From positions 1 to 35,912 of the IMG/VR virus record IMGVR_UViG_3300045988_044516: a stretch of DNA of 35,912 bases. One strand, given 5' to 3'. Within the stretch, counting starts at the first letter, position 1, and every line of letters starts with the position of its first letter. The notes under the pieces are model-generated. The model was not told the DNA's origin and searched no databases. It saw only the letters and a list, made by a program, of their open reading frames with translations. A program made the position numbers and the translations under genes. The DNA is from a virus. Below, in pieces: positions 1 through 35,912 of this stretch.

Positions 1-55
1 CCGAGATCGGCGTCGACCGAAAAACCATCTCCCGCCGCCTGCCGCACATCTACAA
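1..55. repeat. Terminal direct repeat copy 1 (identical to 35858..35912)
   Basis: CCGAGATCGGCGTCGACCGAAAAACCATCTCCCGCCGCCTGCCGCACATCTACAA was read at both ends. This looks like the k-mer overlap of a circular assembly. Confidence 0.95.
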
Positions 56-92
56 CACCGCCCGCCGCCTGGCACAAAGCAGCCCGCCCTGA
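1..92 (+). CDS. 3' part of the junction-spanning sigma-70 region-4-like HTH protein (continues from 35719..35857)
   Basis: The frame starting at nt 3 reads EIGVDRKTISRRLPHIYNTARRLAQSSPP, with stop TGA at 90-92. It continues the open frame at the window end. Confidence 0.6.
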   Translation, partial: EIGVDRKTISRRLPHIYNTARRLAQSSPP

Positions 93-118
93 GCATTACG
101 CTCCGGGCGGGCTTTTTT
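82..118 (+). terminator. Rho-independent terminator, shared hairpin between convergent genes
   Basis: GCCCGCCC (82-89) pairs with GGGCGGGC (105-112) and is followed by T6 (113-118). On the minus strand the same hairpin is followed by UGCUUUGUG. Confidence 0.75.
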
Positions 119-127
119 ACATTCAAA

Positions 128-367
128 TCATATTTTTTCAGCCGAAGGTTGCTCTGCTGGCATGTTTTGCCGCATATACGCGTCGATCCATTTGCGGATC
201 AGTTCATTCGGGGTCGTGCCGTTGGCTTTCGCCGTAGCCTTAAAGGTTTCCGCGATCTCCCGTTTTAGCTTGCAGGAAATCACGGACATGTTTTCTGCAT
301 CCCACTTGTTGCGAGTGCGCTTTTGCGCATCAGTTGGCATTCCTTGCCGCCTCCTTTTCTGAATCAT
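128..367 (-). CDS. Ribbon-helix-helix (CopG/Arc-like) DNA-binding protein, last gene of the accessory operon
   Basis: 79 aa. A basic N-terminus is followed by VISCKLKREIAETFKATAKANGTTPNELIRKWIDAY, a beta-strand/helix/helix RHH pattern. It overlaps the upstream gene by 4 nt. Confidence 0.65.
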   Translation of the reverse strand: MIQKRRRQGMPTDAQKRTRNKWDAENMSVISCKLKREIAETFKATAKANGTTPNELIRKWIDAYMRQNMPAEQPSAEKI

Positions 368-1146
368 AAAAAATGAATATAGATTTCTCCGCTTCTGATT
401 TTTGTGTTGAGAAACGCGGCCTCTGGATTCGGGGCGTTCTCAATGCTTTTCTTGCATAAATAAAGTACGATCTGCAAAGCCTGTCTGTGCGCGGCAAGCT
501 CGGCGGTTCTCAACTCCAAAGTTGTGATCATGGCTCTGCGGATCTCTGGATTATCATCCGATAGATTTTTCAGAGCTTCGCTTACCGTATGAGATAAGCT
601 CGAACGAACCGTTTTTTCTCCAAGATGGATTGGGATGCCGATGGTTTTACCGGTTTCTTTGAGATACAGCAGCCGCAGCTCGTGGTCGCCGCTATTTACA
701 TCATCCTCAAGATGCACAAACACACCGTGGCACGGAGAATCAATATACCGAAAGCCGTCGGCGAATTGCACATAAAAAGATCGGTACGGGATATGGTACA
801 GCGCCTCGCTATCGATCTCAAACTCCTCATCTTCTTGTGCAAACAATCGTTCCTGCAAAGAACGGCCGACAATAAACACATCCTTGTTTTCAATCCATGG
901 TGCAAGGGCGGCGATCTCTTGCGTTGCCTTTGTGGCGGCAGAAATGTTTTCGTATGTGCCAGGAGAATCGCCCATCACAATCGCCATTGCCGCGGACATT
1001 GGTGCATAGCACCATTGATTCCATCTCGGAAGCCCGTTCTTGCCGTTCATTTCATGGAACAGTTTCATTTTCTCCCAGGCATCAGGGTATTCTTCTGTTA
1101 CTCTCTGCAACAGAGCAAGCGGTGGATATGATGGATCAATTCGCAT
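364..1146 (-). CDS. Hypothetical protein (260 aa), no recognisable motif
   Basis: Long ORF in operon context, translationally coupled to its neighbours, with protein-like composition. Confidence 0.75.
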   Translation of the reverse strand: MRIDPSYPPLALLQRVTEEYPDAWEKMKLFHEMNGKNGLPRWNQWCYAPMSAAMAIVMGDSPGTYENISAATKATQEIAALAPWIENKDVFIVGRSLQERLFAQEDEEFEIDSEALYHIPYRSFYVQFADGFRYIDSPCHGVFVHLEDDVNSGDHELRLLYLKETGKTIGIPIHLGEKTVRSSLSHTVSEALKNLSDDNPEIRRAMITTLELRTAELAAHRQALQIVLYLCKKSIENAPNPEAAFLNTKIRSGEIYIHFL

Positions 1147-1900
1147 TCTTGATCTCCTCCACCTTTTCCTTGTACGCTGCCAGCGCGGACTTGTAATTTT
1201 TTATGGCTGAAACATCTTCATTGGAAATACTTGTTTCCGTATTATCCAGGTAAATGCGCCAGTTTCCGGGCCTTCCATAGAATTTCCCGTTCCAGCGTCC
1301 TGCCGGGTAGCATACAGGGCGTTCCGGCTTTTCGAGCGCTGCTATTGCGCTCGCAACAGCGGCGTCATCTTCTGCGAGGTGCTTTGCCATATCGCAGAAG
1401 AGCATATGATCCATCTGCGTGAAAGAGTTCTTGGATTCGAGTTCAGGGATGATCTCTTTCAGCGAGCGGATTGCATCGGAAACAGCATAGGAAACGGCTT
1501 CTGAAAATTCTTTTGCAGTGGTATATTTGGGTGCCGGAAGTTCCTTGCTCCAACACGCGTTGAATCGAGTTCCCATATCCAGGATGCCGGACAACCCTGT
1601 TTCAAACGGAACATCCCAGCGATAGCCGCGAGATTTGAGTGCATCCTTCACGGGCCGGGTGTCCCCGGTAATGGAGATCACGATCTGTGCATTGAGAACA
1701 TCAAGCCCAACGAGCGCCGTGATCGGATTCTTCGATTCTTCGGAACGCATACGCTTTGCGTAGCAGGCAGGGCATTCCGTATAGTGGTCTGCCGCCCACA
1801 GGGCCCAGCTATCAGCTTCGGAGCGGAGCCCTTTGTTGGCCGTTCTCGTAAATTCTGTTCCGCATGTTTCACATTTGCAGTAAGCTGTTGCTTTTGCCAT
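1136..1900 (-). CDS. Hypothetical protein with N-terminal 4-Cys zinc ribbon (254 aa)
   Basis: Internal ATG at 1900 is preceded by GAGGGGG. The protein starts MAKATAYCKCETCG...ECPACY and contains ITGDTRPVKDALKSRGYRWD. Confidence 0.75.
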   Translation of the reverse strand: MAKATAYCKCETCGTEFTRTANKGLRSEADSWALWAADHYTECPACYAKRMRSEESKNPITALVGLDVLNAQIVISITGDTRPVKDALKSRGYRWDVPFETGLSGILDMGTRFNACWSKELPAPKYTTAKEFSEAVSYAVSDAIRSLKEIIPELESKNSFTQMDHMLFCDMAKHLAEDDAAVASAIAALEKPERPVCYPAGRWNGKFYGRPGNWRIYLDNTETSISNEDVSAIKNYKSALAAYKEKVEEIKNAN

Positions 1901-1989
1901 GATATTTGCCCCCTCATTTTTATTATACTGCTCCAATGCGGTTGCACCGGAGCAGTTTTTGTTGGAATGGAATGTGGTGGATCTAAAAC

Positions 1990-2205
1990 TCAGATCTTCT
2001 CGCCGCAGCATACGCGATACTGGATCTCTGCGGGTATATTGTGTTCAGTCCGCCCGCAATACCAACGGGAGAGGATTTCGCCGCTATCATCGTAGCTGGC
2101 TTTTTCGGCCAGCTTAAGAAGCCGGCTTGCAGAGTTCGAGCGGTGGAAAAAAAACATCTGGCCGTTTTCGTCGAATGCCTTAAAGAAGTATTTATACTGT
2201 TTCAT
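1990..2205 (-). CDS. Hypothetical small protein (71 aa), first gene of the accessory operon
   Basis: ATG at 2205 is preceded by AGGAGGA. The ORF track's start at 2223 lacks an SD. Confidence 0.55.
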   Translation of the reverse strand: MKQYKYFFKAFDENGQMFFFHRSNSASRLLKLAEKASYDDSGEILSRWYCGRTEHNIPAEIQYRVCCGEKI

Positions 2206-2268
2206 TTTGTGTTCCTCCTGCATTCATTTTTAATCTCCGGATCTCGCCTTGTTTTATCTTATGGCTAT

Positions 2269-2297
2269 ATTATATACTGTAATACCGTATATGTCAA
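2269..2297 (-). promoter_or_regulatory. Consensus sigma-A promoter with an inverted repeat in its spacer
   Basis: On the minus strand: TTGACA (2297-2292), 17-nt spacer, TATAAT (2274-2269). ATATAC-N9-GTATAT (2272-2292) lies inside the spacer. Confidence 0.7.
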
Positions 2298-2347
2298 GGG
2301 GCTTTCAAAATATTTTATAAAAAATAAAAACAAAAGCCCCCACAAAT

Positions 2348-2374
2348 GGGACAGAAATGTCCCGGAAATGTCCC
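2348..2374. promoter_or_regulatory. Palindrome plus direct repeat, candidate operator/activator site upstream of the 2448 operon
   Basis: Palindrome GGGACA-GAAA-TGTCCC (2348-2363). GAAATGTCCC is repeated at 2354-2363 and 2365-2374, an 11-bp period. Confidence 0.4.
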
Positions 2375-2447
2375 CCATAAAAACCGGGGAAGCGGCAAAA
2401 TGAGAGTAGGAGCTGGCCAGCTTACTACTTTTACCGGAGGATTTTTT

Positions 2448-3083
2448 ATGGAATACGCAAGCAAGGGACTCGCGGGGACTGCGCTGGGCTTTGGCATCGG
2501 CGGCGCCGCGATGAGTCTGGCAAACGGCGGACTCGGCAATCTGCTGGGCGGCATCGGACAGAACAACAAGTCGGCAGCCGCTGACATCGCTGCGGCGGTC
2601 ACGCCTGCCATGACGGTCGCCGCCATGCTCGCAGCACGCCAGCAGGAGCCGACGTGCAGCGAGAACATGCCGGTCACGCGCTACGATCTTGAACGGGAGC
2701 AGAAGCTGGCCGCGAAGGACAGCGAGATCGCGCTGCTCAAGGCCAACACGTACAACGATAGCAAGATGCTGGAGGTGTACGGTTATATCGACAGGCAGCT
2801 CAAGGACGTCCATGAGGCGCTGTGCAAGCAGGCCGTCCACAACCAGCGCACCGAGGACAGCTTCACGCTGGTCAAGCAGGACGTCGAGTCTGTCCGCAAG
2901 GAAGCTCTTGGCGCGGTCAAGATGGAGGCCGAGCGCCGCTGCTGCGGCGACAACGCCCTGAAGACCTATGTCAACGCAACCTTTTATCCCAAGCAGGTCG
3001 CAGATGTCACCACAGGCACCGCGACCACGGCGCAGACGCTCTACGATCCGCTCCCGAAGTGCTGCGGCTGCTGCAACAACTAA
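2448..3083 (+). CDS. Glycine-zipper / coiled-coil / C-terminal Cys-cluster protein (211 aa), function unknown
   Basis: ATG at 2448 follows GGAGG. Motifs: GLAGTALGFGIGGAAMSLANGGLGNLLGGIG, then AAKDSEIALLKANTY, then RRCCGDN, ending KCCGCCNN. Confidence 0.8.
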   Translation: MEYASKGLAGTALGFGIGGAAMSLANGGLGNLLGGIGQNNKSAAADIAAAVTPAMTVAAMLAARQQEPTCSENMPVTRYDLEREQKLAAKDSEIALLKANTYNDSKMLEVYGYIDRQLKDVHEALCKQAVHNQRTEDSFTLVKQDVESVRKEALGAVKMEAERRCCGDNALKTYVNATFYPKQVADVTTGTATTAQTLYDPLPKCCGCCNN

Positions 3084-4038: not shown

Positions 4039-5628
4039 TCAATCCGCGAGGGGATAGAGGGTGACGTGCATGTCGCTGCCGGATTTGGTGTAGGATTTGG
4101 TCTGTTTATGGTAGAGGACTTTCTGCAGGACAGTTTTCAGGAGGGCGTTTTTCTCCTGCGGGGATGCGGCGAGCGGGTAGGTCTCGAGGACGCGGCGGAC
4201 AGCGGGGGCCAGACGGGCGCGGGCCTGTCTGGCACGGGCCAGCTCATGGATCGTGGTCTGGCTTGCCTCGATGCGGTCGACGATGACCTGCTTGTCGGCG
4301 GCGAGCGCCTGCGAGCGCCGCAGGAAGATCTCCGGTGTATAGACACCAGTCTCGACCAGCTCATACGCGCGGGCCTCCTGCGCCTCCAGCTTGGCAAGCT
4401 GCTTGCGGTCGGCGGCGATCGAGGACTCGAGCGCGGCATGCATGGGAGCGTCATCCGGGGCGGCGGCCTCGCCAAGCTCCAGTTCGCGCAGCCAGCCGCG
4501 AAGAGCGTCCAGCACGGCGTCCTCCACATCGTCATACCACGCGCTGACGGTCGTGCAGCCGTAGGAGGGACAAAGGAGCGTGTCGCGGCGGTTGCCGGAC
4601 GACGGACGGCGCACCATCACGCGGCCGCACTGGTCGCAGCGGACGAGCCCGGCGAGGCTCGTCACGGTTCCCCATGCGCCCTTGCCGCGCGGGCTGGCGC
4701 TGGAATAGCTCAGAGCGACGGCCTTGTCGTACTGCTCCTGCGAGATCAGGCCGTCGTGCAGCCCTTTATAAAGCTTCAGATCCTCCTGCCGGGTGCGGGG
4801 GCGACTGACGACGACAGCGCCGTCGACAATGCGCTTCGTCTCCGGTCGGCCACCGGATTTGATCCAGCCAGCATTTGCCGGATTGCGCAGGATATCCAGC
4901 ACAGAGTCCGCGCGCCAGAGGCTGCCGGAGTTGGTCGGGACGCCGAGGCTGTTCAGCCGCGTGGAGATCGCCTTCGCGCCGATGCGCGCGCAGCCCTCGC
5001 CGGTGTACCAGTTGTAGATCTGCTGCAGGACGGGGGCCTGCTCCGGATGCGGGATGAGCTTATAGCCCTTGTCGTTCGGCAGCTTCTCACGCGACCAGCC
5101 GAAGGGCGTCTTGCCGGAGATCCACTTGCCTTCGCGTAAGGACGCCTCCTTGCCGCGCGACAGGCGGCGCTTGATGGTGTTGTACTCCCGCCGCGACATA
5201 AAAAGGCCGAATTCGAAGTACTCCTCATCCATCTCATTGTTTGGATCATAGATCTTGTTCGGCGTGATGATCTTCGTGTTGGAATACTTGAAGGTCTGGG
5301 CAATAATGCCCTGGTCGATGGTGTCACCGCGCGCCAGACGCTCGACCTCCATGACGATGACGCCCGCATAGTTCCCGGTCTCGACGAACTGCAGGACCTT
5401 CTGCACCTCCGGCCGGACAGCGATGGAGTCGCCGGTCACGACCTCCTCGCAGATCTCCACGACGTTCAGCCCGCGGCTTTCGGACAGCGACAAAAGCGCG
5501 GCCCGGTGCCGTTTGAGCGTGTCGGTCTGGCCGAGAGCTTCGGCCTCCATGTCCTTCCGGGACTTGCGCAGGTAAATGATGTACTGCGCGAGCGGGTCGG
5601 CGATTTTCCAGGTAGATGTAAATTTCAT
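4039..5628 (-). CDS. int: Large serine recombinase (phage integrase)
   Basis: 529 aa. N-terminal resolvase-type catalytic domain (YLRKSRKD...VERLARGD), then a recombinase domain, a zinc ribbon (CDQCG...CPSYGC) and a C-terminal coiled coil. Confidence 0.95.
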   Translation of the reverse strand: MKFTSTWKIADPLAQYIIYLRKSRKDMEAEALGQTDTLKRHRAALLSLSESRGLNVVEICEEVVTGDSIAVRPEVQKVLQFVETGNYAGVIVMEVERLARGDTIDQGIIAQTFKYSNTKIITPNKIYDPNNEMDEEYFEFGLFMSRREYNTIKRRLSRGKEASLREGKWISGKTPFGWSREKLPNDKGYKLIPHPEQAPVLQQIYNWYTGEGCARIGAKAISTRLNSLGVPTNSGSLWRADSVLDILRNPANAGWIKSGGRPETKRIVDGAVVVSRPRTRQEDLKLYKGLHDGLISQEQYDKAVALSYSSASPRGKGAWGTVTSLAGLVRCDQCGRVMVRRPSSGNRRDTLLCPSYGCTTVSAWYDDVEDAVLDALRGWLRELELGEAAAPDDAPMHAALESSIAADRKQLAKLEAQEARAYELVETGVYTPEIFLRRSQALAADKQVIVDRIEASQTTIHELARARQARARLAPAVRRVLETYPLAASPQEKNALLKTVLQKVLYHKQTKSYTKSGSDMHVTLYPLAD

Positions 5629-5657
5629 AAGCAGATTCTCGCCACTGTGGAAGGCGG

Positions 5658-6098
5658 TTATACGGGAACAAAGGATGCAAGCGCGGAGGCGCGAAGCCAG
5701 CCGATATTGGGATTACAAAGGTCGACAAGGAGCGCCAGGAGCGCGATGAGAACGATGCACACCAGCACGCCGATCAGAATATCCTTGCGCCGCGCCTCGA
5801 CGGACTTATGGCGGATGATCTGTTCCTGCTTGGAAATGATCGCGTTAGCATGCTTGAGCCGCAGCTCAAGCTCGGCGATGCGCGGCATTTTATCCGGCTG
5901 GTCCAGCAGCACGGCGCTGTCTGTGTCCATCGCGTCCGCGATCCGGTGCAGAGCGGACGAAGGGACGTCGCAGCCACGCTCATAGCGCGAGAGGCTGGCG
6001 ACGGAAACGCCGGAGGCATCGGACAGCTCGTTCAGCGTCATGCCGCGAGACAAACGCTCTGAACGGATGCGATTTTCACAGGTTTCCAAGGTTTCCAC
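5658..6098 (-). CDS. XRE-family HTH protein with coiled coil and C-terminal transmembrane helix
   Basis: HTH is IRSERLSRGMTLNELSDASGVSVASLSRYERG. The transmembrane helix is ILIGVLVCIVLIALLALLV. The likely start is GTG 6098 after GGAAAGGA. The ORF-track ATG at 6152 has no SD. Confidence 0.75.
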   Translation of the reverse strand: METLETCENRIRSERLSRGMTLNELSDASGVSVASLSRYERGCDVPSSALHRIADAMDTDSAVLLDQPDKMPRIAELELRLKHANAIISKQEQIIRHKSVEARRKDILIGVLVCIVLIALLALLVDLCNPNIGWLRASALASFVPV

Positions 6099-34727: not shown

Positions 34728-34922
34728 ATGAACGCAAAATGGTGGAAAGCCGCGGGCATCCGCGCGATCAAGACCGTCGCCCAGACGGCGGTTGCAACCA
34801 TCGGCACGTCGGCAGTCATCTCGGAAGTGAATTGGCTCGTCGTCGCCTCCGCCTCGGCGCTGGCGGGCATTTTGTCCCTGCTGACGAGCGTCGCGGGCCT
34901 GCCGGAGGTCAAGGAGGAATGA
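34728..34922 (+). CDS. Holin
   Basis: 64 aa with two hydrophobic segments and a charged C-terminus (PEVKEE). Contains an IRAIKTVAQTAVATIG motif and overlaps the endolysin start region. Confidence 0.85.
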   Translation: MNAKWWKAAGIRAIKTVAQTAVATIGTSAVISEVNWLVVASASALAGILSLLTSVAGLPEVKEE

Positions 34923-34927
34923 AAACT

Positions 34928-35668
34928 ATGCCGCCGCAGATCGTAGACAATTTCACAAGCGTCAACATCTACCGGGGCGGCAATAAGCCGCAGTATCTGG
35001 TCATCCACTTCTTCGGGGCCCTCTCCAGCGCCTATGGCGCGTCGGAGTGGTTCAAGGCCCCGGAGGCGCAGGCGTCCGCGCATTACTGCGTGGATGAGAA
35101 GGACGTCATCTACCACTGCGTGCCGGATACCGACATGGCGTGGCACTGCGGGGCCGTGGGAGGCCTGCACTACCGGCATCCGAAGTGCCGCAACTGCAAC
35201 TCCATCGGCATTGAGCTGCGCCCGCAGAAGCTCGACAGCAGCCGCCTGAACGCAAACGACAAGGACTGGTACTTCGACCGCCGCGTCATCGAAAACGCCG
35301 TATGGCTCACCGCAAAGCTCATGCGGCAGTACAACATTCCGCTGGAGAACGTCATCCGCCACTATGACGTCACCGGAAAGATCTGCCCGGCCCCGTTCGT
35401 CGGCCCGGCGCATAACATCTACTACGGCACCTCCGGCGACCGCCAGTGGCAGGAATTCAAGGCAAGACTGCAGGAGGAGACAGCCATGAGATACGAAAAG
35501 CTGCGGGACGTCGACAATCAGACGTACCGCCAGACGCTGGACAAGCTGGTGGAGAAGGGCCTGCTCAAGGGCAAGGGCGGCACGGGCGAGGATCTGACGC
35601 TCGATCTGAGCGAGGACAACGTCCGCATGCTCGTCATCCTGGACCGCACCGGCGTCTTCGACCGCTGA
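34928..35668 (+). CDS. Endolysin, N-acetylmuramoyl-L-alanine amidase (Amidase_2/PGRP type) with C-terminal binding domain
   Basis: Contains YLVIHFFG...SAHYCVD...AWHCG...NSIGIEL...VIRHYDVTGKICP. ATG 34928 is better spaced from AAGGAGG than ATG 34919. Confidence 0.9.
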   Translation: MPPQIVDNFTSVNIYRGGNKPQYLVIHFFGALSSAYGASEWFKAPEAQASAHYCVDEKDVIYHCVPDTDMAWHCGAVGGLHYRHPKCRNCNSIGIELRPQKLDSSRLNANDKDWYFDRRVIENAVWLTAKLMRQYNIPLENVIRHYDVTGKICPAPFVGPAHNIYYGTSGDRQWQEFKARLQEETAMRYEKLRDVDNQTYRQTLDKLVEKGLLKGKGGTGEDLTLDLSEDNVRMLVILDRTGVFDR

Positions 35669-35718: not shown

Positions 35719-35912
35719 TTGGCTCTGCCGAAGGAGCTGGAACACCTAACGCGCAGCGACTGGGAGCGCGTCACTGACGAGGGACTTTTGGACGTGATCG
35801 ATCAGCAGATCGTGAAGCTTTATATCGTGCGCAGGCTCCCGCAGATGGACGCCGCCGCCGAGATCGGCGTCGACCGAAAAACCATCTCCCGCCGCCTGCC
35901 GCACATCTACAA
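35719..35912 (+). CDS. 5' part of the junction-spanning sigma-70 region-4-like HTH protein (continues at 1..92 on the circle)
   Basis: The open frame reads ...DWERVTDEGLLDVIDQQIVKLYIVRRLPQMDAAAEIGVDRKTISRRLPHIY. The start is uncertain: TTG 35719 has no SD, and GTG 35794 lies 9 nt after GAGGGA. Confidence 0.5.
   Translation, partial: MALPKELEHLTRSDWERVTDEGLLDVIDQQIVKLYIVRRLPQMDAAAEIGVDRKTISRRLPHIY
35858..35912. repeat. Terminal direct repeat copy 2 (identical to 1..55)
   Basis: Same 55-mer as positions 1..55. Confidence 0.95.

Follow-up and report, generated by a model that had tools for sequence, protein, structure and literature searches.

Two described systems come close to the locus considered here. 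The first is the acr-aca operon governed by Aca14, a regulator of the ribbon-helix-helix (RHH) type whose binding site is an inverted repeat lying over the -10 element, as validated experimentally in Pasteurella multocida (PMC13551039). The second is AcrVA2, from a Moraxella bovoculi prophage (PDB 7CI1/7CI2). AcrVA2 residues H286, R288 and H291 are required for the loss of Cas12a mRNA and dispensable for binding; activity also depends in part on W79 and D89, and W79 is needed for stable interaction with the target (bioRxiv 10.1101/2022.11.29.518452). FinQ, a homologue of AcrVA2, inhibits F-plasmid transfer (bioRxiv 10.1101/2022.11.29.518452). The present locus is an operon of four genes (g1, g2, g3 and g4, in order of transcription) at positions 128-2297 of IMG/VR virus record IMGVR_UViG_3300045988_044516, a stretch of 35,912 nucleotides (nt) that is called the window below. 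With a probability of roughly 0.6, a temperate phage that infects Oscillospiraceae of the gut carries here one allele of a hypervariable, autorepressed and exchangeable acr-aca-type cassette, and the cargo of this cassette includes a motif-less protein of the AcrVA2/FinQ family, g3, acting by binding only.

All four open reading frames are real genes under purifying selection. The ratios of nonsynonymous to synonymous polymorphism (pN/pS), which are rough values because allele pairs are not independent, are 0.17 for g1 (9 alleles), 0.21 for g2, 0.33 for g3 and 0.12 for g4, and there is no stop or frameshift among the 7-13 distinct natural alleles per gene. A first reading of the sequence without database searches (the sequence-only reading) had proposed minus-strand genes of 71, 254 and 260 amino acids (aa) and an overlap between g2 and g3; the same coordinates and the same 11-nt overlap (1136-1146) were found again, and gene callers return genes of these lengths on independent public contigs.

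The operon consists of a fixed frame with exchangeable cargo: a consensus promoter with a palindrome in its spacer, g4 as the last gene, and a shared terminator. Relatives of the flanking plus-strand gene at 2448-3083 occur on 160 viral contigs, which form the comparison set, and the accessory slot is defined as the space between this gene and the converging gene or terminator. Across more than 80 contigs of related phages the content of the slot is hypervariable, and it can be classified at 57 loci. It is empty at 9 of these, and at 20 it holds the same promoter (97-100% identical), one 125-aa gene and the same RHH gene, with 92-95% nt identity to g4 from position 340 down. At three loci the promoter, with one base changed, precedes a 184-aa zinc-ribbon gene similar to g2, two other genes and a 63-aa RHH gene, and the four-gene operon itself is present at two. 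Eight loci share the -10 element and part of the 5' untranslated region (UTR) and have another spacer palindrome (CGCCCA-A-TGGGCG) and helix-turn-helix (HTH) regulators instead of RHH. A ToxN/AbiQ gene stands behind a repeat array at 14 loci, and a promoter of the ToxN type is followed by other content at 1/57.

The cassettes with HTH regulators form a second type (L047, L113, L109, L115, L043 and L122), with the promoter TTGACT-17-TATAAT and, in L122, a compensatory form of the palindrome, CACCCA-T-TGGGTG. Their regulators are an HTH protein of 113 aa or an MqsA-like protein with a zinc ribbon and an HTH, and no RHH gene is found in them. Operator and regulator type appear to swap together. 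Cassettes of the first type extend beyond this lineage, since the promoter and palindrome also accompany g4-type RHH genes in other phage backgrounds (L160, L164 and L006). L160 carries genes of 107, 73, 89 and 118 aa and then an RHH gene, between lysis genes and a serine recombinase; L006 carries a g2-like 248-aa gene, a 114-aa gene and then an RHH gene. Each of these two operons is preceded by TTGACA-17-TATAAT with a related spacer. Altogether, g4-type RHH genes terminate at least five different, unrelated cargo operons. Because the same frame surrounds at least five cargo sets, palindrome and RHH gene are evidently inherited together and the cargo changes around them, the pattern by which acr-aca operons are defined; the layout of an acr-aca-like accessory operon that had been proposed from the sequence is borne out in this respect.

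The complete four-gene operon is also found in phages with tyrosine integrases and thus moves as a unit. It occurs on a 187-kb contig (L164) carrying a protein that NCBI assigns to Hominenteromicrobium, and a 99% identical copy lies in an Oscillospiraceae metagenome-assembled genome; the prophage is present on the metagenome-derived contig CAKTTB010000013.1 as well as on the 187-kb contig. A search with blastn of the region against GenBank phages gave no match. Two other alleles of the slot come from more distant relatives. L078 has at 4800-5788 a TTGACA-type promoter of its own, a 95-aa gene and a 238-aa protein with a zinc ribbon and an HTH. L098 has at 5138-5845 a 235-aa plus-strand protein, whose N-terminus looks NYN/LabA-like.

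As the sequence-only reading had held, the promoter agrees perfectly with the sigma-70 consensus (12/12 positions); it is the sole match in the window even if one mismatch is allowed (0.04 expected in 35.9 kb). That reading had also placed an inverted repeat, ATATAC-N9-GTATAT, in the spacer. Its position stands and its extent does not: the element is a palindrome of 21 bp, in operon sense ATATACGGTA-T-TACAGTATAT, with 10-nt arms (9/10 complementary) around a 1-nt centre. It occupies the spacer and overlaps the edges of the -35 and -10 hexamers, so that an inverted repeat lies over the core promoter, as in acr-aca operons. This palindrome is found only at operons that end in a g4-type RHH gene. 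Within the lineage it varies solely at the centre base (T/A/C) and at the single mismatched arm position, and in L160 the innermost arm pair is altered on both sides, from A.T to T.A, a compensatory change. In the proposed mechanism the promoter would fire strongly and g4 would accumulate, bind the palindrome in the form of a dimer or of a dimer of dimers, and occlude RNA polymerase, giving negative feedback. Control of acr operons by Aca proteins, the RHH-type Aca14 among them, works in this way.

The assignment of g4 to the RHH proteins follows from several concordant signals. The Pfam matches are below threshold (RHH_10 3e-4, BrnA 1.3e-3), PHROGs give phrog_876, 'transcriptional repressor' (7e-6), as well as CopG-like and Arc-like families, and relatives of g4 carry PF10723 or the name AmrZ-like. 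The terminal RHH gene seen in the sequence is supported by this agreement; its proposed length of 79 aa is not. The start is most likely the ATG at 340, giving 70 aa, and not the in-frame ATG upstream at 367, because AAAGGAGG precedes ATG 340, public calls of g4-type genes are 59-70 aa long, and conservation between cassettes begins at this Met, the sequence upstream being divergent. With this start, the 4-nt overlap of g3 and g4 at 364-367 is probably not real.

RHH antitoxins autorepress through palindromes in their promoters. The operon could on this ground be a type II toxin-antitoxin system, in which g4 would be both antitoxin and autorepressor and a protein encoded upstream of it would be the toxin, and g4 does show weak similarity to BrnA_antitoxin (1.3e-3) and to RelB-like proteins (E 0.12). 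However, RHH genes of the g4 type follow at least five unrelated cargo sets, among them a single 125-aa gene, and have no fixed partner; searches of Pfam, NCBIfam and PADLOC reveal no toxin family, and at other loci no RHH gene follows the AcrVA2-like genes. The missing fixed partner, together with the lack of a recognisable toxin, makes this explanation, which the sequence-only reading had left standing as an alternative, very improbable.

The cargo protein g3 is a member of the AcrVA2-like family (PF26125, which includes FinQ) by descent and by fold. All of its 27 homologues (expectation value, E, 1e-101 to 1e-39 for non-identical ones) have a precomputed PF26125 ('AcrVA2-like') annotation, and a gene of identical length, 260 aa, is labelled in the same way in L163-L166; a direct Pfam scan of g3 gave no match, the Pfam set used having no PF26125 model. 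The family profile finds AcrVA2 in the PDB (7ci1, E 1.2e-21), and when the profile is cut down to the region that g3 retains, AcrVA2 is still the top match (E 0.0019; next 0.81). Sequence identity between the two proteins is 12-14%, and AcrVA2 is found by family profiles and fold search only, not by phmmer of g3 alone against the PDB. The AlphaFold2 (AF2) model of g3 is compact and retains the last strand (predicted local distance difference test, pLDDT, 88). Searched against the PDB with Foldseek, it matches only AcrVA2 (7ci2_A: E 1.3e-7, probability 1.00, query TM-score, TMq, 0.56, 245 columns; next E 0.27). The sequence-only reading had found no nameable motif in g3 and had called none of the three cargo proteins recognisable. 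Homologue annotation, profile and fold correct this for g3; it holds for g1 and g2, which have no annotation match. Fold searches of predicted structures, suggested there as a check, lead from g3 to AcrVA2 and give no PDB match for g2.

What sets g3 apart within its family is a missing segment. Most homologues are about 350 aa long and end in SPRPH-x-RR-[GA]-HWH-x-[FY]-W, with H-x-R-R-[GA]-H-W kept in nearly all full-length relatives (37 genomes). In g3 and in the 256-aa form of one sister lineage (58-60% identical) about 90 residues including HxRRxHW are absent, and motifs of the HxRRxHW or RRGHW type occur neither in g3 nor in any of the six frames of the window. Since the last strand of the short forms (..YIHFL) aligns with the last strand of the long forms, the loss looks like a clean internal deletion and not a broken 3' end. 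The N-terminal and middle domains of AcrVA2 are kept. W79 of AcrVA2 corresponds to the invariant W84 of g3, and the equivalent of D89 is Gly94 in g3, Ser in the sister short lineage and Asp in full-length relatives. The missing segment is not supplied by g2, as the hhalign comparison of the two families, g2 and AcrVA2-like, gives a probability of 0.3%.

Could g3 be a decaying remnant that the deletion has inactivated, with the activity of the operon residing in g1 and/or g2? The residues that are missing are essential for AcrVA2 activity, and AcrVA2 mutants that can only bind do not inhibit. Nevertheless, g3 exists in 13 distinct full-length alleles with neither stop nor frameshift and a pN/pS of 0.33, the sister lineage has the same shortened architecture at 58-60% identity, the model is compact and confident with its last strand kept, and the g3 cluster has 383 members, one of them on 257 contigs. 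Conservation in two diverged lineages thus makes a dead gene quite improbable. With W84 and the N-terminal and middle domains kept, and HxRRxHW and the D89 equivalent lost, g3 is most likely a binding-only protein. It would bind a specific polypeptide of a host defence or of a rival element without the step of mRNA destruction, using the two domains that in AcrVA2 hold the target-interaction Trp and the peptide-binding surface. More specifically, the motif-less g3 might be a naturally evolved binding-only derivative of a family that senses nascent peptides and destroys mRNA, which might inhibit a new target stoichiometrically, might be a decoy protecting a polypeptide from the full-length AcrVA2/FinQ-type proteins of rival elements, or might work with the translationally coupled g2 as a new effector; this elaboration is speculative and on balance improbable.

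In other mobile elements, a conserved gene of 75-83 aa (MFYKPGEY...KLYKSA..RI) follows AcrVA2-like genes, in both their long and shortened forms (L001 1627-1854, L004 6065-6295, L026 4728-4979). Genes for DUF3560, HIRAN/endonuclease I and Bro-N/ANT proteins are found at the same loci. The 75-aa form was considered as a counterpart of g4 and is unrelated to it.

Several points weigh against the preferred reading, in which the operon would have an anti-defence or inter-element role and g3 would act by binding only. Binding-only mutants of AcrVA2 do not inhibit Cas12a, and homologues of AcrVA2 are mostly found in hosts without Cas12a (bioRxiv 10.1101/2022.11.29.518452). Given the behaviour of these mutants, the motif-less g3 may have no inhibitory activity, or another one. 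Binding of g4 to the palindrome and the ensuing repression are predicted from sequence, and the RHH assignment of g4 draws on sub-threshold Pfam matches, PHROGs and homologue annotation. No functional signal came from Pfam, NCBIfam, PADLOC or PDB searches for g1 and g2. The location, finally, does not by itself separate anti-defence from defence or exclusion, because the same slot carries a ToxN/AbiQ defence system. At L055 (4971-5892) and 13 similar loci, the slot gene matches Pfam ToxN_toxin (1e-44) and PADLOC AbiQ (4.6e-40), and the 37-nt x 3.1 tandem repeat upstream of toxN is the layout of type III toxin-antitoxin (ToxIN) abortive-infection systems.

The ToxN/AbiQ genes with their repeat array in 14 related phages suggest that the slot is used for defence functions expressed by lysogens, and the operon might likewise be a FinQ-like exclusion or competition moron: expressed in the lysogen, it would act against superinfecting phages or conjugative plasmids and not against host immunity, with g3 binding a protein of the rival element. 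That FinQ inhibits F-plasmid transfer and that AcrVA2 homologues usually occur without Cas12a agree with this idea, and a constitutive consensus promoter with feedback fits expression from a prophage. In contrast, a search of PADLOC-DB v2, also suggested by the sequence-only reading, matched none of the four proteins to a family at E<=1. The frame of strong promoter, palindrome, small terminal repressor and swappable small cargo is that of anti-defence operons, and g3 lacks the motif common to FinQ and AcrVA2 to which the effect on the target mRNA is ascribed. An exclusion moron is therefore possible, if rather unlikely, and the acr-aca-type cassette remains the preferred reading.

The other large cargo protein, g2, has an N-terminal four-Cys zinc ribbon, a small alpha/beta domain (GDTxPxKDxLKxxGYxW), helices, and a C-terminal part with an RWNGKxYG beta unit followed by a long C-terminal helix. 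The zinc ribbon, noted from the sequence, is upheld by conservation of the Cys cluster (C8/C10/C13/C43/C46) in the family, which comprises 1,197 representative clusters at E<=1e-3 and 116 at 1e-30. No Pfam domain is found in g2 and 69 relatives, and scans of the four operon proteins with NCBIfam and Pfam gave nothing above threshold. The AF2 model of g2 (pLDDT 94.7) has no significant fold match in the PDB, and in BFVD it matches only uncharacterised phage zinc-ribbon proteins. The middle domain may resemble modules of DUF5710/DUF3560 type, to judge from one weak BFVD match. In the g2 relative P0154 (850 aa) the part after the zinc ribbon is fused to the C-terminus of an SNF2-type helicase. 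This fusion hints at a possible nucleic-acid-related role for the g2 family.

Relatives of g2 recur as cargo of RHH-controlled cassettes, namely the present operon, loci of the L054 type and L006. In L009/L010 a g2 relative lies two genes from a full-length AcrVA2-like gene. An obligate partnership of the two families was considered and rejected: among about 40 independent AcrVA2-like loci, L009/L010 is the one other case with a g2 relative nearby, and g2 relatives also occur without AcrVA2-like genes. Downstream of their g2 relatives, L009 and L007 carry genes that show no relationship with one another or with g3. The small protein g1 has no match in Pfam, NCBIfam, PADLOC or the PDB. A 72-aa homologue of it lies in the HTH-controlled cassette of L113, which indicates that g1, g2 and g3 shuffle independently. 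A 340-aa tyrosine integrase shares the 90% cluster of g1, as representative and most members, and shows no visible similarity to it; it is treated as a clustering artefact.

Coordinates of the operon and its surroundings are collected in Table 1. The hairpin at the end of the operon, already noted from the sequence, is strong on either strand (81-113, -28 to -29 kcal/mol, z -4.6/-5.6). It is followed by T6 on the plus strand and only by GCTTTGTG on the minus strand, and is therefore a canonical terminator of the converging plus-strand gene, whose end lies at about 92; for the operon it is a weaker terminator. The converging gene, small and HTH/sigma-like, crosses the window junction and ends inside the terminator hairpin. 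Between g1 and g2 lies a second stem-loop, which the sequence-only reading had listed with its plus-strand T5 tail (1928-1960) and left unexplained; its interpretation as a plus-strand terminator is not supported. It folds better on the operon-sense RNA (12 contiguous pairs including two G.U, -22.8 kcal/mol, z -6.6) than on the plus strand, where a shorter, interrupted stem (z -3.4) precedes T5. Two of its three natural variants pair only as G.U on the sense strand, and the third breaks a pair; no U-tract follows the stem in the sense direction, and an Rfam search of window positions 1-2600 gave no match. The stem-loop may serve in stabilisation or processing and in this way separate g1 from g2-g4, or alternatively may stop antisense transcripts.

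The 5' UTR has no significant structure (-1.1 kcal/mol, z +0.9), and a portion of it, CCATAAGATAAAACAAGGCGA, is also found in cassettes with another operator. Just upstream of the promoter, the region 2298-2352 contains an A/T-rich stretch flanked by GGGGCTTT...AAAGCCCC. This stretch is kept together with the promoter and with the upstream hairpin in type A loci, and these elements may insulate the cassette from the divergent plus-strand genes. A direct repeat of 55 bp, exact at the window ends (35858-35912 = 1-55), indicates a circular assembly of about 35.86 kb, complete or circularly permuted. The operon hence sits between endolysin and serine integrase, in line with the place between lysis and integrase ends proposed earlier, and on the strand opposite to the flanking genes. 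Its G+C content is lower, as had been remarked (0.50 vs 0.55-0.70 in the rest of the window). Two repressor-like proteins are also encoded in the window. The flanking plus-strand gene that defines the slot encodes a protein of 211 aa with a Gly-rich hydrophobic N-terminus and a C-terminal PKCCGCCNN, and has no PHROG match.

Table 1. Features of the four-gene operon and its surroundings, in window coordinates.
Feature	Position	Strand	Details
g1	1990-2205	minus	71 aa
g2	1136-1900	minus	254 aa
g3	364-1146	minus	260 aa
g4	128-340	minus	70 aa (most likely start); RHH protein; candidate autorepressor
Sigma-70 consensus promoter	2269-2297	minus	-35 TTGACA 2297-2292, 17-nt spacer, -10 TATAAT 2274-2269
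Palindrome, candidate RHH operator	2272-2292		21 bp; arms 2272-2281 and 2283-2292
5' UTR	2206-2262	minus	ribosome-binding site AGGAGG 8 nt before g1 start; read from sequence
Terminator-like hairpin with T-run, upstream of promoter	2336-2352	minus	consensus scan
Stem-loop between g1 and g2	1928-1955	minus	RNA folding
Hairpin common to converging plus-strand gene and operon	81-118	both	folding
Endolysin	34739-35668		
Serine integrase	4039-5628	minus	

By what means AcrVA2, on recognising a nascent polypeptide, brings about destruction of the corresponding mRNA is an unsolved problem, and so are the targets of its many homologues outside Cas12a hosts. In this regard g3 is a ready-made separation-of-function allele under selection, with the recognition domains kept and the HxRRxHW segment cleanly lost, and its binding partner would reveal a target in the abundant Oscillospiraceae of the human gut. 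If true, any of the three modes of action suggested for a binding-only g3 would separate recognition from destruction in the AcrVA2-like family, and the zinc-ribbon family of g2, with its roughly 1,200 clusters, would gain its first function. The RHH gene and palindrome may in addition serve as bait, since at least five unannotated cargo sets, the g2 family included, become candidate genes for anti-defence or inter-element conflict.

Compared with AcrVA2 and FinQ, g3 shows homology to PF26125 proteins from end to end and, as these usually are, is encoded on a mobile element. Unlike AcrVA2, it is without the segment of about 90 residues with H286/R288/H291 and has Gly94 in place of D89, and its host is an Oscillospiraceae bacterium with no known link to Cas12a. 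With acr-aca operons and Aca14 (PMC13551039) the operon shares the strong promoter, the inverted repeat over the core promoter and the small RHH gene at the 3' end, as well as the combination of one regulator and operator with many different, mostly unannotated cargo genes. However, Aca14 has its experimental validation in Pasteurella multocida and the present operon has a Gram-positive anaerobe of the gut as host, and the anti-CRISPR link of the cargo consists of the homology of g3 to AcrVA2, whose essential motif is missing. Like phage morons, the operon has its own promoter and terminator, a lower G+C content, an opposite orientation and presence/absence polymorphism among close relatives. 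In contrast to a moron with one inserted gene, the slot holds interchangeable cassettes with at least three pairings of promoter-operator and regulator (RHH, HTH and ToxI-ToxN). Both the kind of operon and the family of g3 are thus already known; what is new is a conserved natural variant of that family without the essential motif, along with an RHH/palindrome frame in common gut Oscillospiraceae phages and the unannotated cargo that this frame marks.

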